Shown: positions 1 through 11,045, counted from the first letter of the stretch. The stretch is DNA of 11,045 bases from Gemmatimonadota bacterium (GCA_031372565.1 JANMLN010000082.1:1-11045), one strand, 5' to 3'. The notes: a model not told the origin generated them from the letters alone. Translations and numbers: made by a program.

Positions 1-2418
1 GAGATCCTCGTCCTCCTCGAGCGCTTCATTCGCACCGAGCAGGCGTTGGGTCCCGCCGGCTCACGGGCCGAGCTCCTCTCGCGGTTTGCGCGCTCCGAGC
101 TCTCGGCGGCCGGCGCGCTCACGCATCTCGCGTCCTGGTCACCGTCCGGCGAGGTGGTCGCCCAGCTCGATCTCGCCCCGTTCCCCGAGGACGCGGTGGA
201 GCGCCTCGCGCTCGTCAACACCGCCCGCCGGGATGGCACCGTACGCGTCGTCCGGGCGTCCAACATCCCATGGCTGCAATTGATGGTGGCGATACCGCAT
301 CTCGGCGGCGCGGTGACGACCATCGTGGTCGCACCGCGCTCGCGCCTGCTGCCCGATGACCCCTTTGGCGTCCTGCTCGGGCTGGCACCGGCGGTGGTCG
401 CCGATCCGCCGTACAGCTTGAGCCTCGCCGGGGCGGCGGCGCCCGTGGCTGGCCCGCGCGAACGCTGGCAGCGTCGCGGGACCGAGCTGCACGGGGACTG
501 GGAGTTTGCCGGTGTCAACGGACCGATGCGCGTCCATGCATCCGTCGAGCTGCGCTCGATGGAGTCGTTGGTGCCGCGGGGCGCCTTGCTCGTCCTCGCC
601 GACGTCGTCCTCGTCGCGCTGCTCTGGGCGGGCAACGTCGCCGCCGGCGGCGCGCTCCGTCGTTGGCTGCGCCTCCGGCGTGATGTCTGGCTCGGCTCGT
701 TCCGCGTCCGACTGACGCTCGGCCTCTTCGCGTTCGCGCTGCTGCCGGTGCTCGCGTTCGCCGCTGTCGCGGTGCGGCGACTCCAGTCGGACGACTTGCG
801 CTCGCGCGAACTCGTGGTGCTCGAGACGTTGCGCGGCGCGGTCTCGTCGAGCGAGGACGTGCAGCTGCTGCAGCTCGCCGAGCGGCTCGACACGCCGCTC
901 CTGCTGTACGGCGATGGCGCACTGCTCAAGGCGAGTGAACCGCTGCACGAAGTGCTCGCGCCCACCGGGCGCTTTCTCGACCAGTCGCTGCTCACGGGGC
1001 TTGGTCCGGACGACCTCATTGCCACGACGCGCGAGGAGCGACTGGGTCGCTATCGCGCGCTGGTCGGGTATCGCTCGATCGAGGCGTCGACCTACGCCAC
1101 GCGCTTCCTGCTCGCGGCGCCTGCGCGCACAGACGCGCTGGAGCTCGATCGGCGACGCAACGACCTGCTGATCCTCCTGCTGTTTGCGGCGAGTGCGGCT
1201 GCGCTGGCCGCATTCTGGCTGTCGGGGGTCGTGGCGCGGCAACTGGCGTCGCCCATCGAGGTGCTGCGGCGCAATGCGCTGGCCGTCGCTGCCGGTGAGC
1301 GACCGGAGTTGCCGGGCACGCCGCTGTCGGAGTTCGTGCCCGTGTTCCGCGCCTTCGGCCGCATGACAGATGACCTGGGCGAGAGTCGCGCCGCGCTGGA
1401 GGCGGCGCAGCGGCGCACCGCCGCCGTGCTCTTGAACGTGGCGTCGGGCGTCGTGGCCGTGGACGAGGGTGGCGTGGTGGTGCTGGCGAACCCGCGCGCC
1501 GAAGCGATCATCGGCTCGCTGCTGCCTGCGGGCAGCGCGCTGGAGGGTGGCATCGCCGGGTCGCTGGGGCGCGAGGTCCGATCGTTCGCGCTGACGGAGG
1601 CACCAGAGCGCGAGTTCGACCTGCCGGTGGGCGCGCGGCGGCTGCATGCGCGGCTCACCCGGCTTCCCTCGTCGCGCGGCTTCGTGATCACGGTCGACGA
1701 CGTGACGGAACTCGCGCGGGCGCAGCGCGTGCTCGCGTGGGGCGAGATGGCGCGCCAGGTCGCGCACGAGATCAAGAACCCGCTCACCCCGATCCGGTTG
1801 GGCGTGCAGCACCTGCAGCGTGCGCGGCACGACCCCCGCGTCGACTTCGACGAGGTGCTGACGCGCAACGTGGAGCGCATTCTGGCGGAGATCGACCGGT
1901 TGGACGAGATCGCGCGGACGTTCAGCCGCTTCGGGACGACGCCGGCGGCGCGGCCCGCGCGCGAGGGGGTCGCCGTGGACGAGCTGCTGCGCGACGTGGT
2001 GGCGCTCGAAGGGCTCGGCGCCGGAGACGAGGTGCAGTGGGTGGTGGAGGTGGCTCCCGCGTTGCCGCGTGCGCTCGCGCGGGACGACGAGTTCCGCGAA
2101 GTGTTGCTCAACCTGCTCGAGAATGCCCGGCTTGCCGATGCGCGCACGGTGCGCGTCGAGGCCCGGACCATGGGCGACCGCGTGATGGTGACGGTGGCGG
2201 ATGACGGCGACGGGATCGCCGCGGACGCGCTGCCGCGCGTCTTCGAGCCGCACTTCAGCACGCGGACCTCCGGCAGCGGGCTCGGGCTGGCGATCTGTCG
2301 CCGGTTGGTGGAGGGATGGGGCGGCGCGATTGGTCTCGAGTCGGTGCCTGGCCGGGGCACGACCGTGACGCTCACGCTGGCGGCAGCCTCTCACACTGGC
2401 GAACTTCCACCCAGATGA
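1..2418 (+). CDS. Membrane sensor histidine kinase, NtrY-like (TM segments, HAMP, PAS-like, HisKA, HATPase_c); 5'-partial
   Basis: Frame 1 is open from base 1 (EILVLLERFIRTEQALGPAG...), so the true start probably lies upstream of the window. Three hydrophobic segments lie at about 583-633, 712-774 and 1165-1236, followed by a HAMP-like region (LASPIEVLRRNALAVAAG...FGRMTDDL) and a PAS-like region (VLLNVASGVVAVDEGGVVVLANPRAE). H-box AWGEMARQVAHEIKNPLTPI (His codon 1765), N-box EVLLNLLENA, G1 DDGDGI, F-box VFEPHFST, G2 GSGLGL. Stop TGA 2416-2418. Confidence 0.95.
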   Translation, partial: EILVLLERFIRTEQALGPAGSRAELLSRFARSELSAAGALTHLASWSPSGEVVAQLDLAPFPEDAVERLALVNTARRDGTVRVVRASNIPWLQLMVAIPHLGGAVTTIVVAPRSRLLPDDPFGVLLGLAPAVVADPPYSLSLAGAAAPVAGPRERWQRRGTELHGDWEFAGVNGPMRVHASVELRSMESLVPRGALLVLADVVLVALLWAGNVAAGGALRRWLRLRRDVWLGSFRVRLTLGLFAFALLPVLAFAAVAVRRLQSDDLRSRELVVLETLRGAVSSSEDVQLLQLAERLDTPLLLYGDGALLKASEPLHEVLAPTGRFLDQSLLTGLGPDDLIATTREERLGRYRALVGYRSIEASTYATRFLLAAPARTDALELDRRRNDLLILLLFAASAAALAAFWLSGVVARQLASPIEVLRRNALAVAAGERPELPGTPLSEFVPVFRAFGRMTDDLGESRAALEAAQRRTAAVLLNVASGVVAVDEGGVVVLANPRAEAIIGSLLPAGSALEGGIAGSLGREVRSFALTEAPEREFDLPVGARRLHARLTRLPSSRGFVITVDDVTELARAQRVLAWGEMARQVAHEIKNPLTPIRLGVQHLQRARHDPRVDFDEVLTRNVERILAEIDRLDEIARTFSRFGTTPAARPAREGVAVDELLRDVVALEGLGAGDEVQWVVEVAPALPRALARDDEFREVLLNLLENARLADARTVRVEARTMGDRVMVTVADDGDGIAADALPRVFEPHFSTRTSGSGLGLAICRRLVEGWGGAIGLESVPGRGTTVTLTLAAASHTGELPPR

Positions 2419-4157
2419 GTACGCCGACGCACAGCGGGTCCCACCGCGCGGTCCAACCTGTTCCCGCGCACCTGCAGGGGTGGCAATTGCCTCCTGACTG
2501 GCGGTGGGGGCAGGTGGGGATGTTCGCGGACTACCGCCACGTGCAGGAGATCATCGACGCGCTTGGCCGGTCGCTGGCACTGGTCAGCGCGCCCGAAGCG
2601 GCGCACGCGGACTGGTTGCGCGAGGAGGCGCGCACGCTTGCGCATTCGAGTCATCCAACGATTCCGACCACCTATCACTACTGGACGCGCGACGCCACCA
2701 GTCCGCGCGGCCCGGGGTACTTGCGTCGCTGGATCGCCGGCGAGACCGTCGGTGCACGCTCGCGGCGCGTCGGCACGGAAGGCCTCGCCTACATGCTGAC
2801 CATTCTGCGCGCTGCGGGCTCCGCGCTGGCGTACCTGCACGATAGCGGCATCGTCCACGGCGCCATCTCCGCCGAGCACACGTGGGTGACGCCGACGGGA
2901 CGAGTCTGGTTGCTCGGCTGGCAGTGGGCCGTACCGCGCAGCTTCGTGCCCGACGGGCTGTCGCCCGATCCGCAGTTGGTGGTCGGAGCGCCAGAGCTGC
3001 GCGATGCGCCGTGGGCGCCGACGCTCGCGTCGGACCAGTGGCAGCTCGGCGCCATGTGCTTCGCGGCGCTGACCGGCGAACCGCCGCCGTCGGCCGACAT
3101 CCCGCCGCTCCGCTGGGTCTCGCCCGAAGTGCCCGAACCCGTGGCCGCCATCATCGATCGTACGCTCGCCGTGAAGCCGGAGGATCGTTACCCGAGCATG
3201 ACCGCGCTGCTTCGCGCCGTCGACCGCACGGTGGCCTCGCGCACGCTGCTCGTGAACGCCGACGAAACGCCGCAGCGACCGCGCGACGAGTCCGATGAGG
3301 CGCGACTGCGGTGGGCAACGGCCGACGACTACCAAGTGAGTTCGCCCCTCGGCCGCGGCACGTTCGGCTCGGTGTGGCGCGTGCGTGACCTCGCGCTCGG
3401 CCGCGAGGTGGCGCTCAAGATGTTGCATCCCGACATCGCGCGGATGCCCAGTGTCGTCGCGCGCTTCCAGCGCGAGGCGCGACTCGCCGCGCAGCTCGCA
3501 CATCCGGCCATCGTCCCCATCTACGACTGGGACAGTCGTGGCGAAGTGGCGTGGTACACCATGGAGCTCGCCGAGGGCGGATCGGTGGCGCAGCTGGTGG
3601 CGCGACAGGGACCGCGTCCGCTCGAGGAGATCGCGCCGCAGGTCTACATGGTGCTCGACGGTCTCGAGGCCGCACATGCGATCGGGATCATCCATCGCGA
3701 CCTCAAGCCGGAGAACATCCTCATCGATCGCTACTGGCGTTGGCGCGTCGCCGACTTCGGCATTGCGCTGGCGGGTGGCGAGGAGACCGCGGGGATGACG
3801 GGCACCCCGGCCTTCGCCGCACCGGAACAACTCCTCGGCGAGTCACAGGGCCCGCTGGCCGATTGCTTCGCGCTCGCGGCGATTGCGGTCTTCGCCCTGA
3901 CTGGCAAGCCGCCCTTCGGCGAAGAGAACGCGCAGGCCGTCCTCGCGCGCCAACTCGCGGGCGACTGGGATCGCGACGCCTTTCCCGACGCCATCGCGCG
4001 CTTTTTCGCGAAGGCGCTCGCGCCGCAACCGGAGCACCGGTTCACCGACGCGGCGGCCATGAAGACGGCGTGGCTGGCGGCGGTGGAAGAGACGATGGAC
4101 GAAGCGAGCGAGTCGGACTCGTGGTGGTCCCGGCTCGTGCGTACCGTACGACGGTAG
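2415..4157 (+). CDS. Hanks-type Ser/Thr protein kinase with tandem domains: N-terminal pseudokinase plus C-terminal canonical kinase (580 aa)
   Basis: ATG 2415 overlaps the upstream TGA (ATGA) and is preferred over the ORF-track start at 2316. The C-terminal domain has GRGTFG (3351-3368), VALK, alphaC RE, HRDLKPEN (3693-3716), DFG (3753-3761), GTPAFAAPE and DCFAL. The N-terminal domain (about 2520-3224) keeps kinase-fold landmarks (EEARTLAHSSHPTIP, ALAYLHDSGIVH, APE, SDQWQLG, ALTGEPP, KPEDRY) but lacks the catalytic residues. No TM segment is evident. Confidence 0.93.
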   Translation: MSTPTHSGSHRAVQPVPAHLQGWQLPPDWRWGQVGMFADYRHVQEIIDALGRSLALVSAPEAAHADWLREEARTLAHSSHPTIPTTYHYWTRDATSPRGPGYLRRWIAGETVGARSRRVGTEGLAYMLTILRAAGSALAYLHDSGIVHGAISAEHTWVTPTGRVWLLGWQWAVPRSFVPDGLSPDPQLVVGAPELRDAPWAPTLASDQWQLGAMCFAALTGEPPPSADIPPLRWVSPEVPEPVAAIIDRTLAVKPEDRYPSMTALLRAVDRTVASRTLLVNADETPQRPRDESDEARLRWATADDYQVSSPLGRGTFGSVWRVRDLALGREVALKMLHPDIARMPSVVARFQREARLAAQLAHPAIVPIYDWDSRGEVAWYTMELAEGGSVAQLVARQGPRPLEEIAPQVYMVLDGLEAAHAIGIIHRDLKPENILIDRYWRWRVADFGIALAGGEETAGMTGTPAFAAPEQLLGESQGPLADCFALAAIAVFALTGKPPFGEENAQAVLARQLAGDWDRDAFPDAIARFFAKALAPQPEHRFTDAAAMKTAWLAAVEETMDEASESDSWWSRLVRTVRR

Positions 4158-4217
4158 CGCCGACCCGTTGCGCGTCGCCGCGGCCCGCCGCCAGCGCGTG
4201 ATGTCGCCGCCTCCCCC

Positions 4218-7200
4218 ATGAGAAACGCCACGCCCCGATCCGTCTTCGAGGATCCCTCCGGAAGGCGGTGGCGCATCGTTCGGCGGATCGCGATCGCGAC
4301 GGGCGTGGTCACGTCGCTGCTGACGCTGACCGTGATTGCCGGCGTGCTGCTTCCGCCCCTGCTGCCCGGGGTGAACTGGACGATGGCGCCCGTGGGGCCC
4401 AAGCGACCACCTCGACTCATCACGTCGGAGGCCGAGCGCGCGCAGGATCAGGCGCGCCGCCAACTGCGCCGGTACCGCGACGGTCTGCGCGTACCGCCCT
4501 CGGTGCGCGCGTCACGGCTTCCGTTGGTCAAGTGGTCGGGCGGTGCCAAACCGAAGGCCGCGGGAGAGCCGATCGTCGCGGGCTTCTACGTGAACTGGGA
4601 CGACAATTCACTGGTGTCGCTCCGGGCACACGCGGCGAAGCTCGACTGGGTCATCGGCGAGTGGGCGTTCGTGGCTCCGTCGGGTGACTCGCTGCTGGTG
4701 AAGTTCGACCGCAAGGTCCCGTACGTGCTGTCGCTGCTCAAGCCGGCGGACCGGCCGGCGATGCTGTTGATGATCTCGAACGCGCAGGATCGGCAGACCT
4801 TCGACGAGGGGCGGCTCCGACGCCTCGTCTCCCGGCGCGCGGCTCGCCAGCGGGTGGTCGCGCAGCTCGTGGATGCCGTGACCACCTACGGGCTCGCGGG
4901 CGTCACGATCGATTTCGAGAACATCCCGGCCGGTCTCGAGGACGACTTCTTCCGGTTCACCGAAGAGGTGCGCGGCGCCATGCGGCAGCTCAACAAGCTG
5001 ACCACGCAGGCGATCTCGCCCTTCGAGTCGGACGAGTTCGTCCGGCGCGCCGGTCGGGAGAACGACCATGTCATCATGATGCTGTACGACGAGCACGCGG
5101 GGCCGAAAGACCCGGGGCCGGTCGCGAGTCAGGGGTGGTACGTGTCGAAGGCCGAGCACGCGATCAGTCTGCTGCCACCGCGCAGTGCCATCCTCGGGAT
5201 CGGGGCGTTTGGCTACGACTGGAACGATGCCGCTGGCGCGACGCGCGTGGACGCCCAGACCTTCCAGGACGTGATGAAGGCGGCCCGCGCCCGTCCGGAC
5301 GCTGTGCGCACCGATGCGCGCTCGCTCAACCCGTACCTCGTCTGGACCGATCGCGACTCGGTCGATCACCTCACCTGGTTTCTCGACGGCACGACCGCGT
5401 GGAACCAGATCCGGGCCGGTGGGCGTCTCGGGGCAGCCGGACATGCCATCTGGCGACTCGGCAGCGAGGATCCGTCGCTCTGGAACGTGCTGAGCGAGCA
5501 CGGGCTCTCGAAGGATGCGGGGGCGTTGGCGACCATCCCGGGCGGCTACGACGTGGAGTTCGACGGCGAGGGCGAACTCCTGCGCATCCTGGTGAAGCCG
5601 ACGGATGGCGAGCGCGGCGTGAAGCTCGACGAGGCGTCGGGGCTCGTCACGTCCCAGACGCTCGTGCGGGCCCCGTCGGCGACGATCGTGCAGCGCACAG
5701 GCAGTGGTCCGCAGCGGCCGGGTGGCAAGCGGATCGCGCTGACCTTCGATGATGGTCCGGACGGCACGTGGACAGGCCCGATCCTCGACACGCTCAAGGC
5801 GCGCGGAGCACCGGCGACCTTCTTCGTGATCGGCGGCAACGTGGAACGACGGCCCGGACTCATGCGCCGCATCGTGCGGGACGGGCACGAGTTCGGCAAT
5901 CACACCTGGTCGCACCCGAATCTGGGACTCGTAGCGCCGTTTCTGGTGCGTCTGGAGATCGCCGCCAATGCGCGTCTGCTCGAGGCGATCCTCGACAAGC
6001 GGTCGGTCTTCTTTCGTCCGCCGTACTTCGGAGACGCCGAACCGACCTCGACCGACGAACTGATACCGGTGCAGATCGCCAGCGAGATGGGCTACATCAC
6101 CGCGGGCGTGCACATCGACTCCGACGACTGGAAGAATCCCGAGCCGGCCGTCATCGTCGAGACGGTGTTGCGGGAACGCGAGCGCGGCAACGTCGTGCTG
6201 CTGCATGACGGCGGTGGCGACCGCGCCAATACCTTGGCGGCGCTGGGTCCGATGATCGACTCGCTACGCGCGCGCGGCGACACGCTCGTGTGGCTCTCGG
6301 CGCTCGCAGGGGTGCCGCATGACGAGGCGATCCTGGCGCTGCCACCTCGCAGCGCGGCGCAGCGCCTGATCGAATTGGGCACCTTCGGCGCCGTGGGACT
6401 CGTCGAGTGGGCGGTCTACTGGATCTTTCTGGCGGCGGTCATCCTCGGGACGGCGCGCATCGTGGTAGTGCTGGTGCTGGCGGCGTGGGAGCGCATGCGG
6501 CGAGTCCCCGCGCACGCCGGGTTCGCCCCCCCGGTGGACATCCTGGTGCCAGCGTTCAACGAGGCGAAAGTGATCGTCCGCACCGTGGAGAGCCTGTTGG
6601 CGCAGGAGTATGCGGGAGGCATCCGGGTGATGGTCATCGACGACGGCTCCCCGGACGATACCGCCGAGGTGGCGCGCGCGGCCTTCGCGAACGACGCGCG
6701 CGTCGAGGTCGTCCTCAAGCCCAACGGCGGCAAGGCGAGTGCGCTCAACGCGGGGCTCGCACGGTCAAGCGCGGACATCGTGGTGTGCCTGGACGCGGAC
6801 ACGCTCTTCGAGCGCGATACCGTGGCCTGCCTCGTGGCCCCCTTCGTCGACCCCGCCGTGGCGGCGGTGGCGGGGAATGCCAAGGTGGGGAACCGCATCA
6901 ACCTGGTGACGCGCTGGCAGGCACTCGAGTACGTGACGAGTCAGAACACGGATCGCCGCGCATTCGCGCTGCTCGACTGCATCACGGTCGTGCCCGGCGC
7001 GGTGGGCGCGTGGCGCCGAACGGCGGTCGCCGCAGTGGGCGGATTCAGCGATGATACGCTCGCCGAGGATCAGGACCTCACGATCGCGCTGAGCCGACAG
7101 GGCCATCGGATCGGGTTCGCCGAAGACGCGATTGCCTGGACCGAGGCACCCGACACGTTGGCGTCACTCGCGAAGCAGCGCTTCCGATGGTCGTTTGGCA

Positions 7201-7646
7201 CGCTGCAATGCGCGTGGAAGCACAAGGGCGCACTCCTCCGCTGGAAGTACGGAAGCCTCGGCTTCGTGGCGCTGCCGAACACCTGGGTGTTCCAGTTGCT
7301 CTTTTCGGCGCTGTCGCCACTGGCTGACCTGCTCTTCGTGTGGAGCCTGATTGCCGTCGGGCTCGCGCGCTGGCAGCATGGCACGACGTACGCGATCGAA
7401 ACGCTCGAGAACGTGCTCTTCTACTACGCGCTCTTCCTGCTCGTGGACTGGTTGGGAGCGGTCATCGCCTTCCTCATGGAGCCGGGCGAAGACAAGGCGC
7501 TCACCCTGCTGATTCCGTTGCAGCGCTTCGCCTATCGCCAGGTGATGTACTTCGTTGTCGTGCGATCGTTTGCCGCCGCCATGCGGGGTGGCATCGTCGG
7601 CTGGGGCAAGCTCGAGAGGAAGGCGACCGTGGAGCGGCCCGCGTAG
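4218..7646 (+). CDS. Trifunctional membrane protein: GH18-like domain + CE4 (NodB-type) polysaccharide deacetylase + processive GT2 glycosyltransferase (PgaC/IcaA/CesA-like)
   Basis: N-terminal TM anchor at about 4287-4364. GH18-like region at about 4570-5490 (GFYVNWD, YGLAGVTIDFE, MLYDEH, FGYDW, AIWRLGSED). CE4 motifs TFDDGP (5742-5759), HTWSHP, RPPY, DSDDW, LLHD. TM at about 6408-6488. GT2 motifs VPAFNE, DDGSPD, GGKASALN, LDAD, TLAED, QRFRW (7176-7190), followed by C-terminal TM helices. Stop TAG 7644-7646. Confidence 0.95.
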   Translation: MRNATPRSVFEDPSGRRWRIVRRIAIATGVVTSLLTLTVIAGVLLPPLLPGVNWTMAPVGPKRPPRLITSEAERAQDQARRQLRRYRDGLRVPPSVRASRLPLVKWSGGAKPKAAGEPIVAGFYVNWDDNSLVSLRAHAAKLDWVIGEWAFVAPSGDSLLVKFDRKVPYVLSLLKPADRPAMLLMISNAQDRQTFDEGRLRRLVSRRAARQRVVAQLVDAVTTYGLAGVTIDFENIPAGLEDDFFRFTEEVRGAMRQLNKLTTQAISPFESDEFVRRAGRENDHVIMMLYDEHAGPKDPGPVASQGWYVSKAEHAISLLPPRSAILGIGAFGYDWNDAAGATRVDAQTFQDVMKAARARPDAVRTDARSLNPYLVWTDRDSVDHLTWFLDGTTAWNQIRAGGRLGAAGHAIWRLGSEDPSLWNVLSEHGLSKDAGALATIPGGYDVEFDGEGELLRILVKPTDGERGVKLDEASGLVTSQTLVRAPSATIVQRTGSGPQRPGGKRIALTFDDGPDGTWTGPILDTLKARGAPATFFVIGGNVERRPGLMRRIVRDGHEFGNHTWSHPNLGLVAPFLVRLEIAANARLLEAILDKRSVFFRPPYFGDAEPTSTDELIPVQIASEMGYITAGVHIDSDDWKNPEPAVIVETVLRERERGNVVLLHDGGGDRANTLAALGPMIDSLRARGDTLVWLSALAGVPHDEAILALPPRSAAQRLIELGTFGAVGLVEWAVYWIFLAAVILGTARIVVVLVLAAWERMRRVPAHAGFAPPVDILVPAFNEAKVIVRTVESLLAQEYAGGIRVMVIDDGSPDDTAEVARAAFANDARVEVVLKPNGGKASALNAGLARSSADIVVCLDADTLFERDTVACLVAPFVDPAVAAVAGNAKVGNRINLVTRWQALEYVTSQNTDRRAFALLDCITVVPGAVGAWRRTAVAAVGGFSDDTLAEDQDLTIALSRQGHRIGFAEDAIAWTEAPDTLASLAKQRFRWSFGTLQCAWKHKGALLRWKYGSLGFVALPNTWVFQLLFSALSPLADLLFVWSLIAVGLARWQHGTTYAIETLENVLFYYALFLLVDWLGAVIAFLMEPGEDKALTLLIPLQRFAYRQVMYFVVVRSFAAAMRGGIVGWGKLERKATVERPA

Positions 7647-7712
7647 CATCCTCGTGCCAGCGGAAGCACCATGCTGCGCGTAGCCCAAGATCCCTTCATC
7701 CACGAACCCACC

Positions 7713-9905
7713 ATGACGCTTCGTTTGTTCGCGCGCGCCTCCGTCATCCTGCTCTCGCCCGCCGTGCTGGTCGCGCAGGGGGCAACGCCGCGCCCCTTCG
7801 CGCCCAACGACTGGTACAAGGTCACGACCGTCGGCAACGCGGCGCTCTCGCCGGACGGCAAGCTGGTGGCCGTGACGGTCACCACGCCGGTCGAGAAGGA
7901 CAACAAGCGGCACAACGAGATCTGGGTCGTGCCGACGACCGGGGGAGCGCCCGCGCGCTGGACGTCGCCGGCGCTCGAATCCACCGCGCCACGCTTTTCG
8001 CCCGACGGCAAGTATCTGTTCTTCACGAGCCAGCGAGCGGGCGGCAAGGGTAGCACGTGGGCGCTCCGGCTCGATCAGCCGGGCGGCGAAGCCATGCAGC
8101 CCGACAACTACCCGACCCGTGGCAGCGCCCCGGCCAGCAAGGGCTTTCTGGTGTGGGCCGAGGCGCCGGATGACACGGCGGGGGCCACCAAACCGGATGC
8201 ACGCTTCGAGCGCATGCTGCCCATGGCACGGCCGCCGGTCAACGCGATCACGCGGCCGGTCGATCCCGCACGCTTCGACGGGCGCCATGTCACCGAGACG
8301 CGCTACAAGCAGAATGAGCAGGGCTTCATTCCCGGCCCGCGTGTGCCGCGTCGATGGAACCCGGCGCAGGTGTGGATGCAGAAGACCGATGGCTCGCCGA
8401 AGGTCAGGCTGACCAGCGCGCTCTACTCGCATCGCGAGGTGACGGTCTCGCCGGACGGCCAGTGGATTGCGTTCGTGGCTGACGCAAAGTTGCGCCCCGA
8501 CTCCGTGGTGCAGGCCGAACAGGATTCGCTCGGCAAGCTGCCGTACGACGCGAAGCGCGACGAGGCCCCGCGCAATGACGTGGACCTGTTCGTCGTGCCG
8601 GTGCGCGGCGGCGAACCCCGCAAGGTCGCGGCATTCACCGGGGCGGAGTCGCAGCTGGCGTGGTCGCCGGACTCGCGTCGCATCGCGTTCGTCGCGGCGC
8701 AGTCCCGCTGGGGCACCACGCGGCTGTGGGTCGTCGACGCGGCGGGGGGAACGCCGAGGAACGTGATCGGGAGCTTCCAATACGAGCCCGCGCGCATCGA
8801 CTGGCTCTCGAACGACGAGCTGTCCCTCTTCGCCGAGGTCGGCGGACGAAGCGGGCTCTTCCGTGTGGCGGCCACCGGTGCGTCGGCGCCACGCGAAGTC
8901 CTCGGCGGGCGACGTCGCATCATCGGACCTGCGTTTGATGACGCGCACGCGAAGGTCGCGTTCGTGGGCACGAGCATGAACCGGCCGACGGAGCTGTTCA
9001 TCGCCGACGCGGACGGCGCGAACGAACGACAGCTCACGCACTTCAACGATGCCGTGAACGCGGAGATCGCCTGGAGCGATGCCGAGCGCTTCACGTACAA
9101 GGGGGTCGGTAACCTCGAGATCGAAGCGTGGCTCATGAAGCCTCCGGGTTACGAGCCGAGCCGCAAGTACCCGCTCGTCCTCTACATCCACGGCGGTCCG
9201 CACTCGGCCTACGGCGAGAACTGGTTCGACGAGTTCCAGAGCCTCGCTGCCGCCGGCTTCATGGTGCTCTTCACCAACCCGCGTGGGTCGAGCGGGTACG
9301 GTGCCGCCTTCACCAACAGCATTCGTGGTCGCTGGTTCGCCGACGACTATCGGGACCTGATGCAGGCAGTCGACATCGTCGCCAAGCGCTCCGATGTCGA
9401 TTCCACGAAGATGGGCGTCACCGGTGGTTCGTACGGCGGCGTCATGACGGCGTGGATCACCTCGCACACCAATCGGTTCAAGGCCGCAGAGAACGACCGG
9501 ATGATCGCCAACTGGTGGTCATGGTATGGAACGTCCGACGCGCAGGGGCTCACCGAGGGCGAGTTCTACGGTCGCCCGTGGGACAATCCGGCGATGTACG
9601 ACTCGCTCTCCCCCATCCGCTACGCGCCCCGCGTCAAGACGCCGACGCTCATCGTGCAGAGCGAAGAGGACCACCGCACCCCCATGACGGACGCCGAGCA
9701 GTGGTTCGTGGCGCTCAAGAAGCATGGGACGCCGGTCGAGTTCGTGCGTTATCCCCGGTCCACGCACGAGCTGTCGCGGAGCGGGGAACCGTGGCTGCTG
9801 GTCGATCGGCTGGGTCGCCTGCGCCAGTGGTTCGGGTGGTGGCTCCAGGGCAAGGCGGCGGACGCTGGCCCCTCGCCCGACCGCTCCGCTGGTCGGTCCC
9901 CGTAA
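7713..9905 (+). CDS. Secreted S9-family (prolyl oligopeptidase clan, S9C/acylaminoacyl-peptidase-like) serine peptidase with beta-propeller domain
   Basis: ATG 7713 gives a signal peptide (MTLRLFARASVILLSPAVLVA-Q) and is preferred over the in-frame ATG at 7671. SPDG/SPDS PD40-type propeller repeats at 7848, 7998, 8448 and 8664. HGGPH, NPRGSSGYG, nucleophile GGSYGG (9423-9440), Asp in EEDHRTP (9669), His in STHELSRSG (9765). Stop TAA 9903-9905. Confidence 0.95.
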   Translation: MTLRLFARASVILLSPAVLVAQGATPRPFAPNDWYKVTTVGNAALSPDGKLVAVTVTTPVEKDNKRHNEIWVVPTTGGAPARWTSPALESTAPRFSPDGKYLFFTSQRAGGKGSTWALRLDQPGGEAMQPDNYPTRGSAPASKGFLVWAEAPDDTAGATKPDARFERMLPMARPPVNAITRPVDPARFDGRHVTETRYKQNEQGFIPGPRVPRRWNPAQVWMQKTDGSPKVRLTSALYSHREVTVSPDGQWIAFVADAKLRPDSVVQAEQDSLGKLPYDAKRDEAPRNDVDLFVVPVRGGEPRKVAAFTGAESQLAWSPDSRRIAFVAAQSRWGTTRLWVVDAAGGTPRNVIGSFQYEPARIDWLSNDELSLFAEVGGRSGLFRVAATGASAPREVLGGRRRIIGPAFDDAHAKVAFVGTSMNRPTELFIADADGANERQLTHFNDAVNAEIAWSDAERFTYKGVGNLEIEAWLMKPPGYEPSRKYPLVLYIHGGPHSAYGENWFDEFQSLAAAGFMVLFTNPRGSSGYGAAFTNSIRGRWFADDYRDLMQAVDIVAKRSDVDSTKMGVTGGSYGGVMTAWITSHTNRFKAAENDRMIANWWSWYGTSDAQGLTEGEFYGRPWDNPAMYDSLSPIRYAPRVKTPTLIVQSEEDHRTPMTDAEQWFVALKKHGTPVEFVRYPRSTHELSRSGEPWLLVDRLGRLRQWFGWWLQGKAADAGPSPDRSAGRSP

Positions 9906-9931
9906 CGGCCGCCGAAGCGGATCGGTGTGTC

Positions 9932-9965
9932 ACGGACCCGTCTGTCACGATCCAGACGGGTCCGT
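9932..9965. repeat. Perfect 13-bp inverted repeat (stem-loop) with an 8-nt loop; possible terminator, RNA-stability element or operator
   Basis: ACGGACCCGTCTG (9932-9944) - TCACGATC - CAGACGGGTCCGT (9953-9965); the arms are exact reverse complements. It starts 26 nt after the peptidase stop codon. There is no U-tract on either strand, so function is uncertain. Confidence 0.85.
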
Positions 9966-9981
9966 CGTAGGGAGGAGGGGG

Positions 9982-10032
9982 ATGCGAAAGCGCTGTCCGC
10001 GTCCGATACTCTACGCCGACCACCATGTCTGA
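9982..10032 (+). CDS. Putative 16-aa upstream/leader ORF (MRKRCPRPILYADHHV) overlapping the start of the downstream kinase
   Basis: Strong SD-like GGAGGAGG at 9971-9978 with ATG at 9982. Its TGA (10030-10032) overlaps the kinase start (ATGTCTGA). There is no homology evidence. Confidence 0.3.
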   Translation: MRKRCPRPILYADHHV

Positions 10033-11045
10033 CCTCCTCGATCCGACTCTCACCGGCGAAGCCGGATTCCGGCATCTCGCCGATGCTGCGCCGTTCCCGG
10101 TGTGGATGCTCGGGCCGACCGGACGGATCACGTGGGTCAACAAGCGGTACGCCGAGTTGGTCGGCCGCACCGCCGCGGAGGTCGTGCAGCTCGGCCTGCT
10201 CGCCGATGCGCATGCCGATGACCGCGAGTCGTTGGCGGCCGCGGTTGCCGACGGGGTGAGCACGCGCGCGCAGTTCACGGCCGAGTACCACCTCCGGCGA
10301 GTCGATGGCGAGCACCCCCTCATCCTCGCGACGGCCTCGCCGCGCTTCGATTCCTCCGGCGCCTTTCTGGGCTTTGTGGGGAGCTCGGCCGACGTCGCCG
10401 CCCGCGACGTGGCCGATCGGCAGCGCGAGGACGATGAACGGCTGGCAGCCGTGCAGCGGTTGGCCGGTGGTGTCGCGCACGAATTCAACAATTTGCTCAC
10501 GCAGATCAAGGTCGGCGCGGAACTGGTGCTCGCCGAGCTGGCACCCACGGCTCCCGGCCGCGGTGATGTCGAGTCGATCTCCATGGCGGCGGATCGGGCG
10601 TCGGTGCTGGCGCGTCAACTGCTCGCCTTCGGCCGACGGCAAATGCTCCGCGCGGAGCCGATCGACATTGAAGATGAGGTGCAGTCGAACGCAGAGTCGC
10701 TGCGCCAGCTCGCGGGGGCGTCGATCGCCATCTCGCTGCAGTTGGCCGGCGTCGACGGTGCGGTGCGAACCGATCCCGAACAGTTGGTGCACGTCCTGCG
10801 CGCCCTCGTGGCCAACGCGCGTGATGCGATGCCGACCGGCGGCGTTGTCACCATCTCGACGACGCCGATGACGGCGAGTGGAGGCGAAATCGGACCGAGT
10901 CCGAGTCTCCGCGCCGGACCATACGTGCGCCTCACCGTGGGCGACAACGGTCCGGGGAGGGATGAAGAGGCCAAGGCCCATGCATTCGAGCCGTTCTACA
11001 CGACGCGCGACCGGGACGTGCATCCCGGTCTCGGCCTGTCGACGG
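10025..11045 (+). CDS. Cytoplasmic PAS/PAC sensor histidine kinase (CckA-like HisKA-HATPase, possibly hybrid); 3'-partial
   Basis: Absent from the ORF track because it has no stop in the window; I translated it by hand in frame 2. PAS/PAC: MSDLLDPTLTGEAGFRHLADAAPFPVWMLGPTGRITWVNKRYAELVG...HADDRE...AEYHLRRVDGE...SPRFDSSGAFLGFVGSSADV. H-box LAGGVAHEFNNLL (His codon 10478), RQLLAFGRRQ, N-box LRALVANARDAMPTGG, G1 DNGPG, F-box AFEPFYTT, then GLGLST at the window edge. ATG 10025 is the first start codon after the in-frame TAG at 9968-9970. Confidence 0.93.
   Translation, partial: MSDLLDPTLTGEAGFRHLADAAPFPVWMLGPTGRITWVNKRYAELVGRTAAEVVQLGLLADAHADDRESLAAAVADGVSTRAQFTAEYHLRRVDGEHPLILATASPRFDSSGAFLGFVGSSADVAARDVADRQREDDERLAAVQRLAGGVAHEFNNLLTQIKVGAELVLAELAPTAPGRGDVESISMAADRASVLARQLLAFGRRQMLRAEPIDIEDEVQSNAESLRQLAGASIAISLQLAGVDGAVRTDPEQLVHVLRALVANARDAMPTGGVVTISTTPMTASGGEIGPSPSLRAGPYVRLTVGDNGPGRDEEAKAHAFEPFYTTRDRDVHPGLGLST

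Follow-up and report, generated by a model that had tools for sequence, protein, structure and literature searches.

A tandem pseudokinase-kinase gene, conserved in one family-level group of the Gemmatimonadota and linked to a sensor histidine kinase gene

We analysed a stretch of Gemmatimonadota DNA (GCA_031372565.1, JANMLN010000082.1:1-11045) that constitutes the whole of an 11,045-base contig (C165) in a 4.4-Mb assembly of approximately 70% G+C. This stretch is henceforth referred to as the window. The gene under study occupies a single stop-free frame that translates into 580 amino acids (aa). Its start codon overlaps the TGA (2416-2418) of an upstream histidine-kinase frame, and the Met start at 2415 matches the start of the closest relatives in the alignment. 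A sequence-only reading of this DNA had proposed two kinase folds in one soluble chain, the first dead and the second live. The open frame, the domain matches, the structural models and the hydropathy profile all agree with that description. The hydropathy scan detected no membrane segment in the 580 aa, the sole hydrophobic stretch being the alphaF helix of the second domain. Pfam matches across the 580 aa included no domain other than kinase and no sensor domain, and a scan of positions 2200-4400 returned no promoter-like and no terminator-like sites. The parts of the gene are listed in Table 1.

Table 1. Coordinates of the tandem-kinase gene, its parts and the upstream histidine-kinase frame in the window
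Feature	Coordinates	Strand	Basis or remark
Tandem pseudokinase-kinase gene	2415..4157	+	580 aa; ATGA overlap with the histidine-kinase stop
Conserved N-terminal extension, residues 14-35	2454..2519	+	Alignment; pLDDT (predicted local distance difference test) 69-85 in the domain-1 model
Domain 1, pseudokinase with full bilobal kinase fold, residues ~30-275	2502..3239	+	PknA match, domain-1 model, Foldseek, VIA-align
Val57 codon where the beta3 (VAIK) Lys is expected	2583..2585	+	Alignment to domain 2; direct reading
HGAISAEH replacing HRDLKPEN; HRD His kept, catalytic Asp, Lys and Asn lost	2856..2879	+	PknA alignment; direct reading
GWQ replacing DFG	2916..2924	+	PknA alignment; direct reading
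Linker, residues 276-302, poorly conserved and of low confidence, ending in a conserved helix before domain 2	3240..3320	+	Model; alignment
Domain 2, canonical Hanks-type Ser/Thr kinase, residues 303-555	3321..4079	+	Pfam, PknB match, motifs
C-terminal tail with conserved WW-basic motif (W570, W571), and stop codon	4080..4157	+	Alignment
C-terminal 805 aa of a polytopic sensor histidine kinase, truncated by the contig start	1..2418	+	Pfam HisKA, HATPase_c; PAS

We collected relatives by a word-index search with domain 1. The best 120 proteins were 341-614 aa long and 54-100% identical over 94-100% of domain 1. Nearly all of these 120 listed proteins are full-length and two-domain, and their named sources are Gemmatimonadaceae, Gemmatimonadales or Gemmatimonadota. 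We aligned 39 of the 120, and conservation is reported below for these 39 relatives.

Domain 2 is an ordinary live kinase by every sequence measure that we applied. It matches Pfam Pkinase (PF00069) over residues 306-554 with an expectation value (E) of 5.4e-46 and 157.6 bits (cut-off 31.7), and PknB with E 3.1e-37; its best relatives are bacterial Ser/Thr kinases. The motifs GRGTFG (3351-3368), VALK (3408-3419), HRDLKPEN (3693-3716) and DFG (3753-3761) are all present. The domain is therefore of Hanks type by its profile score and by its Gly-rich loop, beta3 Lys, HRD Asp, catalytic Asn and DFG Asp, as the sequence-only reading had stated in calling it fully canonical. The catalytic residues are complete in 39/39 relatives, and domain 2 is predicted to be an active kinase.

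Domain 1 matches the same fold far more weakly in sequence. Its score against Pfam Pkinase is 18.1 bits, under the cut-off of 31.7, and it was not picked up in a PF00069 scan of the whole genome that yielded 63 matches at E ≤ 0.01, of which 61 exceeded the cut-off. Searched alone, it matches Mycobacterium tuberculosis PknA (4ow8) over residues 63-269 with E 6.1e-12. Modelled alone from 29 orthologues, it reached a pLDDT of 83.0 and a predicted template modelling score (pTM) of 0.81, with all kinase secondary-structure elements present. Foldseek matched this model to PknB and PknA (E 6.3e-15, target-normalised template modelling score (TM) 0.67-0.78), and VIA-align superposed it on PknB 2fum_B with a Z score of 26.5 and a root-mean-square deviation (rmsd) of 2.6 Å over 243 residues. 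Its features lie nearest to ordinary bacterial Ser/Thr kinase clusters in the ESM Atlas (score 0.98). The kinase fold earlier suspected for this half of the protein is thus borne out by the PknA match, the model and the superposition on PknB.

The catalytic positions of domain 1 were assigned from alignments to PknA and to domain 2. Val57 replaces the beta3 Lys, Ala150 the HRD Asp, Ser152 the catalytic-loop Lys, His155 the Asn and Gly168 the DFG Asp. Retained structural residues comprise the alphaC Glu71, the HRD His148, Trp169 (at the DFG Phe), the APE Glu194, the alphaF Asp207 and Arg258, and the alphaC Glu-Ala-Arg motif is kept as it is in domain 2. Because the catalytic residues are gone and the structural residues kept, domain 1 fits the sequence definition of a pseudokinase with an intact scaffold, and it is presumably unable to bind ATP. 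All of the motif coordinates in the sequence-only reading were correct, including SLALV at 2571-2585, which ends in the Val codon. Its claim that every hallmark has been lost went slightly too far: the Lys, the HRD Asp and the DFG Asp are indeed gone, but the Gly-loop region is not blank. It keeps a WGxxG remnant in which G32 is nearly invariant and G35 is present in 36/39 relatives.

We assessed how constant the degenerate motifs are. The beta3 Lys column contains Val in 37 relatives and Ile in 2; the HRD Asp column contains Ala (35), Gly (2), Ser (1) and Asp (1); the DFG Asp column contains Gly (38) and Arg (1); and the DFG Phe column is Trp in 39/39. The column equivalent to the Asn is variable. 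Among the structural residues, Glu71 and Glu194 are present in 39/39 and His148 in 35/39, and Asp207 and Arg258 are invariant in the alignment. The number of invariant columns is nearly the same in domain 1 (59/262) and domain 2 (60/253). The mean majority frequency is 0.42 in the linker versus 0.72 and 0.77 in the two domains. Compared with a same-genus orthologue (Nei-Gojobori), the ratio of nonsynonymous to synonymous substitution rates (dN/dS) comes to 0.155 in domain 1, 0.175 in domain 2 and 0.61 in the less constrained tail, at a dS of approximately 0.7-1.0 that is near saturation.

The pattern also extends to distant relatives. An exhaustive search of 1.84 billion cluster representatives recovered 30 clusters at E ≤ 1e-30. 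We aligned 9 divergent representatives, and the 5 that are intact (37-59% identical) retain the pattern in both domains: domain 1 has HG(A/G/C), (G/S)W(Q/E) and L(S/A)LV, and domain 2 has HRD and DFG. The other four (P0121, P0124, P0129 and P0136) look frameshifted in domain 2 and were excluded from statements about motifs. Since the replacement motifs are conserved in relatives and dN/dS is low, the losses in domain 1 are fixed rather than the product of random decay, under purifying selection like that on the live domain. Conservation of the degenerate motifs had been proposed as a check, and they are held in 38-39 of the 39 relatives. We therefore give almost no credence to the view that domain 1 is the functionless, decaying remnant of a duplicated kinase domain. 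The loss of all catalytic residues would fit such a remnant, but the low dN/dS, the 59 invariant columns, the freedom from stops and frameshifts, the conserved replacement motifs and the occurrence of the gene in 26 genera do not.

The invariant positions of domain 1 include 10 Trp, 12 Pro, 7 Arg and 5 His. Trp accounts for 5.4% of domain 1 (2415-3314), versus a mean of 0.26% and a maximum of 1.6% among the 39 further kinase domains compared from the window's genome. In the N-terminal extension, P17, H19, L20, W23, L25, P26, W29 and W31 are invariant in 39/39 sequences. We considered whether domain 1 has been repurposed, with a remodelled cleft that binds a small ligand or performs non-canonical chemistry, as in SelO or SidJ, and so serves as the sensor of the protein. 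Positions lining the cleft hold other invariant residues (R41, R52, E71, R104, R105, W106, W169 and W171), the invariant Arg and His residues are numerous, and SidJ and SelO are named as kinase-fold proteins with other activities in a 2025 review (PMC12599244). However, the domain has no Gly-rich loop, the metal-binding positions lack a conserved acidic or Asn residue (the Asn column is variable and the Asp column is Gly), and the profile and Foldseek searches returned no family or structure match to such an enzyme. We consider repurposing of this kind distinctly improbable.

We modelled the full-length protein and compared it with known tandem kinases. The model has a pLDDT of 74.9 and a pTM of 0.51, and linker residues 274-291 have a pLDDT < 50. 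In a Foldseek search it was closest to 4oli, the pseudokinase-kinase pair of TYK2 (E 6.5e-18, 597 columns); next came full-length JAK and a kinase-domain duplication of EGFR, with TM scores of 0.35-0.41 and rmsd of 18-22 Å across the matches. Given the low TM scores and large rmsd, the model has only the order of two kinase folds in common with these matches. The JAK-like arrangement put forward in the sequence-only reading accordingly stands for domain order, with 4oli as the best match, but finds no support in the geometry of the model (TM 0.35, rmsd 18 Å). The relative placement of the domains is either not shared with JAKs or not predictable from a model of this confidence. FERM and SH2 domains, which JAKs have, are absent from the bacterial protein, whose 580 aa match kinase families only and whose domain 2 is a PknB-type Ser/Thr kinase nearest to bacterial Ser/Thr kinases, unlike the tyrosine kinase JH1. 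The protein is thus not a member of the JAK family. JH2 of JAKs retains the beta3 Lys and binds ATP, whereas the bacterial domain 1 has lost all three catalytic residues. Relative to kinases of the PknB/PknA type, domain 2 is an ordinary member and domain 1 has the same fold, but the bacterial protein has no membrane segment or PASTA domain and its domain 1 is degenerate and Trp-rich.

We searched for domain 1 at E ≤ 1e-30 in a sample of the phylum comprising 301 genomes from 127 genera. It was found in 66/301 genomes, the window's own genome counted, and in 26/127 genera. Positives are concentrated in one family-level group (f1), where 65/69 genomes carry the domain, versus 0/231 genomes in eleven other families. 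One positive genome (G157) is unpublished; without it the counts are 65/300 overall and 64/68 in f1. Every positive genome has one match, with the exception of G140, which has two. The tandem kinase is therefore a single-copy, near-universal gene of one family-level group. The second copy in G140 (C77:20151-21011) is divergent (44% identity, E 2.2e-64) and lies in a 700-aa open frame. A tblastn search of a plasmid collection with domain 1 matched 25 records, all at < 60% identity (24-35% among the 15 listed); the annotated matches are ordinary kinases, save for one AAA ATPase.

The window's genome encodes approximately 60 other kinase genes (61 PF00069 matches above the Pfam cut-off in 4.4 Mb), a very large kinome for the genome size. 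No second pair of kinase-domain matches in one frame was seen in the table of matches for this genome, which gives coordinates only. We built a kinase tree of 67 rows comprising 14 domain-1 sequences, 14 domain-2 sequences and 39 kinase domains of the window's genome. Domain 1 and domain 2 each form their own clade with support of 100, and domain 1, on a stem of 1.54, does not stand beside domain 2. The taxon pairings are identical within the two clades, from which we conclude that the two domains travelled together. Joining domain 1 and domain 2 was not rejected by the approximately unbiased (AU) test (p 0.50). The by-eye alignment of the two halves in the sequence-only reading reflects real homology (25% identity, E 9e-7). 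This likeness is ordinary homology among kinases and does not demonstrate an internal duplication.

We next considered the histidine kinase encoded upstream. Its orthologues are 1334-1405 aa long and have 10-12 hydrophobic segments followed by HAMP, PAS, HisKA and HATPase_c domains, and the H-box residue H589 is invariant in 14/14 aligned sequences. The protein (L046 3905-7963, for example) is approximately 1350 aa and includes a polytopic membrane region of approximately 950 aa that has no Pfam family. No response-regulator gene was seen beside it in the loci examined. We compared 20 of the 66 positive loci, picked for long contigs and spanning 13 genera. The histidine kinase lies immediately upstream on the same strand in 16/20, and in most loci the distance from its stop to the kinase start ranges from an ATGA overlap up to approximately 40 nucleotides. 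The tandem kinase thus has an operon-like, tight linkage to the histidine-kinase gene and is probably translationally coupled to it.

The membrane part of the histidine kinase is more widely distributed than the tandem kinase. We detected it in 211/301 genomes, including 64/69 in f1, 117/125 in f2, 3/3 in f3, 6/6 in f4, 16/47 in f7 and 4/4 in f8. Four of these positives are unpublished (G157, G057, G182 and G097), and without them the count is 207/297. Because the membrane part is found in many genomes beyond f1, the histidine kinase is the older of the two, and the addition of the tandem kinase behind it dates to the root of f1. At the corresponding position behind the histidine kinase, two f2 loci carry other genes.

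We propose that domain 1 is a non-catalytic regulatory or docking module for the live kinase, in a pathway with the upstream histidine kinase, and we put the probability of this reading at roughly one half. The rationale for a regulatory or docking role is that the scaffold of an assembled kinase has been kept while the chemistry is gone, and that the constraint on domain 1 is as strong as that on the live domain. Neither a sensor nor an anchor is built into the protein itself, and its gene is tightly linked to that of a sensor kinase, which argues both for such a role and for a shared pathway. The protein would be a soluble signalling protein in which the N-terminal dead kinase fold, kept as a folded and strongly constrained module, governs the timing and place of the neighbouring live kinase's activity. 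Such regulation would resemble that by JH2 in JAKs in principle, not necessarily in geometry. We infer that domain 1 contacts either domain 2 or the histidine kinase. The tandem kinase would probably act in one pathway with the putatively co-transcribed polytopic sensor. The sequence-only reading had the dead domain replacing the usual PASTA or TPR sensor. The protein does lack its own sensor, but a polytopic sensor histidine kinase is encoded by the adjacent gene in 16 of the 20 loci. A more specific version of our proposal is a stand-alone, JAK-like bacterial switch in which the Trp-rich domain 1 reads the state of the histidine kinase, by docking or by being modified, and gates the Ser/Thr kinase. 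This would be a relay from His kinase to Ser/Thr kinase without a response regulator that arose once, at the root of one Gemmatimonadota family, and was kept as a core gene. We regard this version as speculative and unlikely.

Several observations weigh against the proposed role and pathway. The link to the histidine kinase is not obligate: in 2 of the 20 loci no histidine kinase lies within 8 kb, and in 2 it is nearby on the opposite strand. Its membrane part is widespread, including in f2 where the tandem kinase was not found. Within f1, 4 genomes have the histidine kinase and no tandem kinase, and 5 genomes (all four of genus g10, plus G098) have the tandem kinase and no histidine-kinase match. 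A protein of 1745 aa (P0289) was considered as a natural fusion of the histidine kinase to the tandem kinase and was rejected, as the C-terminus of its histidine kinase is garbled after the G2 box, a frameshift artefact. Finally, the full-length model contains no confident inter-domain interface, as its pTM and its fit to 4oli indicate; with that pTM and a low-confidence linker, we claim no inter-domain contact from the model.

Some of the same evidence could be accommodated by a scaffold acting in trans, in which the dead domain mainly docks the kinase onto a partner and has little direct effect on domain 2. The partner might be the histidine kinase (through its cytoplasmic part), a substrate, or another copy of the protein itself, as in the back-to-back N-lobe dimers of PknB and MviN. 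The adjacency and probable translational coupling of the two genes would suit a docking function, as would the lack of a membrane anchor in the kinase. Domain 1 is conserved most densely along the N-terminal extension, around alphaC and in the beta4-beta5/hinge stretch, with the 10 invariant Trp, and the MviN pseudokinase is described with scaffolding and back-to-back dimerisation in PMC12599244. However, the histidine kinase is widespread without the tandem kinase, and the tandem kinase persists without it in g10. Docking of this kind is also compatible with regulation in cis and does not exclude it. As the principal function of domain 1, we find a trans scaffold somewhat doubtful.

We compared the protein with other described tandem kinases and pseudokinases. 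According to published descriptions, plant tandem kinase proteins (such as WTK1/Yr15, RPG1 and Sr62) are likewise soluble with two kinase folds, one of them degenerate, and the simplest members contain nothing else. They differ in being eukaryotic immune receptors for pathogen effectors, often with the kinase preceding the pseudokinase, and in being lineage-specific fusions of plant kinase families; this comparison is by description only. A 2025 review (PMC12599244) and an atlas preprint (10.1101/2025.01.12.632604) sort bacterial pseudokinases into seven families, naming ActPs1-3, GLW, CP1, DYD and DLHK, and include the MviN pseudokinase. In the ActPs1-3 and GLW families, as described there, the absence of the VAIK Lys, HRD Asp and DFG Asp is likewise conserved. 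They differ from the protein studied here in that none of the families is described from this phylum or as standing in tandem with a live kinase. In the GLW family, as described, the HRD position reads GLW and a membrane segment lies at the C-terminus; ActPs3 is described without an activation loop, and CP1 with a COG3899 partner domain. By these descriptions, the HGA and GWQ motifs, the complete fold and the solubility of our protein would set it apart. The words "tandem" and "Gemmatimon" are absent from the main text of both sources, although their supplementary family tables could still place these proteins.

The closest bacterial precedent that we found described is PglW, which belongs to the Pgl / type-2 BREX phage-defence system of Streptomyces coelicolor and its relatives. 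It is reported to have an inactive kinase-like domain just N-terminal to an active Hanks kinase (PMC12839542, PMC4365076). In Streptomyces coelicolor PglW, an atypical kinase domain without an ATP site (195-490) precedes the Hanks domain (530-816), and Lys677 is described as required for autophosphorylation and phage resistance (PMC4365076). The same pseudokinase-kinase tandem is reported for a subset of DndF proteins. The sequence-only reading had known of no characterised bacterial example of the arrangement, and the published account of PglW supplies one.

We searched the protein with defence-system profiles. The PglW profile (NCBIfam NF033442) aligns in register over both domains, with residues 128-564 against positions 315-777 of 1391, so it seemed worth weighing whether the protein derives from a PglW-like or MADS-like kinase of phage defence, stripped of its other domains. 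The PADLOC PglW profile also matched (E 2.5e-27), as did MAD6 and PD-T4-6. However, the scores are far under the curated cut-offs (99.6 bits versus 990 for PglW, 180.8 versus 460 for MAD6), and the PADLOC matches to PD-T4-6, mad6 and MkoA are generic kinase-domain matches. PglW proteins run to 1400-1600 aa: they start with a NERD nuclease, end in a long half for DNA binding and sensing (winged helix-turn-helix/iSTAND), and are encoded in a BREX operon. The protein studied here has 580 aa and only two kinase folds, and is encoded behind a sensor histidine kinase as a stable core gene of one family. Its likeness to PglW was judged from the profile and the published description. It has neither the NERD domain nor the C-terminal half, and no BREX genes (PglX, PglZ or BrxC) are among its neighbours, which in the window encode an S9 peptidase, a GH18-CE4-GT2 protein and a histidine kinase. 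No PADLOC family was matched by this neighbouring histidine kinase or by a 263-aa protein encoded further upstream in related loci. A gene that is single-copy and syntenic in 65/69 genomes of one family is also unlike a member of a defence island. A search of the phylum for PglW gave 0/301 genomes at E ≤ 1e-60, but the control was detected in 0/14 genomes and the result carries little weight. Because the score is far below the profile cut-off, and the other PglW domains and the BREX neighbours are absent, the protein is not a PglW, and we consider descent from a stripped defence kinase very improbable. The protein is neither PglW, JAK nor plant tandem kinase; it represents a new, minimal, sensor-kinase-linked family of the same arrangement.

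Other genes surround the pair. Further upstream in the related loci is a divergently oriented trio encoding the 263-aa protein without a family (16/20), a TolC-like outer-membrane protein (18/20) and an HlyD/MacA-like adaptor (17/20). No inner-membrane pump gene was seen with this trio (L046 237-3821 and equivalents in 16-18/20 loci), and the membrane domain of the histidine kinase might be its missing partner. An aldehyde dehydrogenase is also among the neighbours in related loci. Downstream in the window, a 1142-aa frame (4218-7646) combines a chitinase-like domain of glycoside hydrolase family 18 (GH18), a polysaccharide deacetylase (CE4) and a family-2 glycosyltransferase (GT2) of the PgaC/NodC type; this gene is common only to the same-genus locus. 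It is followed by a protein with PD40 and S9 prolyl-oligopeptidase-family matches (7671-9905) and by a PAS-HisKA-HATPase histidine kinase truncated by the contig end (10025-11044). A 424-aa frame without a family on the opposite strand (9749-11023) is probably a shadow of this terminal histidine kinase.

The metagenome library contained further multi-kinase proteins. Seven of them (P0168, P0170, P0190, P0197, P0199, P0219 and P0260) have two to five Pfam-detectable kinase domains, and some multi-kinase proteins also bear nSTAND1, or FHA and TIR. In 25 protein clusters of 1217-1310 aa (P0271-P0296 except P0289), the tandem-kinase frame continues without a stop into a TonB-dependent receptor (Plug and barrel). 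The same run-on occurs in one sampled genome, G085 (L058 6050-9949). The junction between kinase and receptor is a hydrophobic, signal-peptide-like stretch, and in G085 the sole nearby start-type codon is a TTG within this stretch. The topology of such a protein, with a cytoplasmic kinase fused to an outer-membrane barrel, would be odd.

Animal cytokine signalling and the disease resistance of cereals both use tandems of a pseudokinase and a kinase as central switches. The sole bacterial case that we found described lies inside the large defence protein PglW, and its dead domain was not studied in that account. The Gemmatimonadota family is a minimal form of the arrangement, with two domains and a short linker in a soluble, single-copy and strongly conserved protein. 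It is an addition to the 2025 classifications of bacterial pseudokinases, whose main text does not mention it. Many natural sequence variants and single-contig genomes are available for it. The family could serve as a simple system for studying the control of a live kinase by a dead kinase fold, and could show how Ser/Thr and His-Asp signalling join in a kinase-rich, hardly studied phylum.

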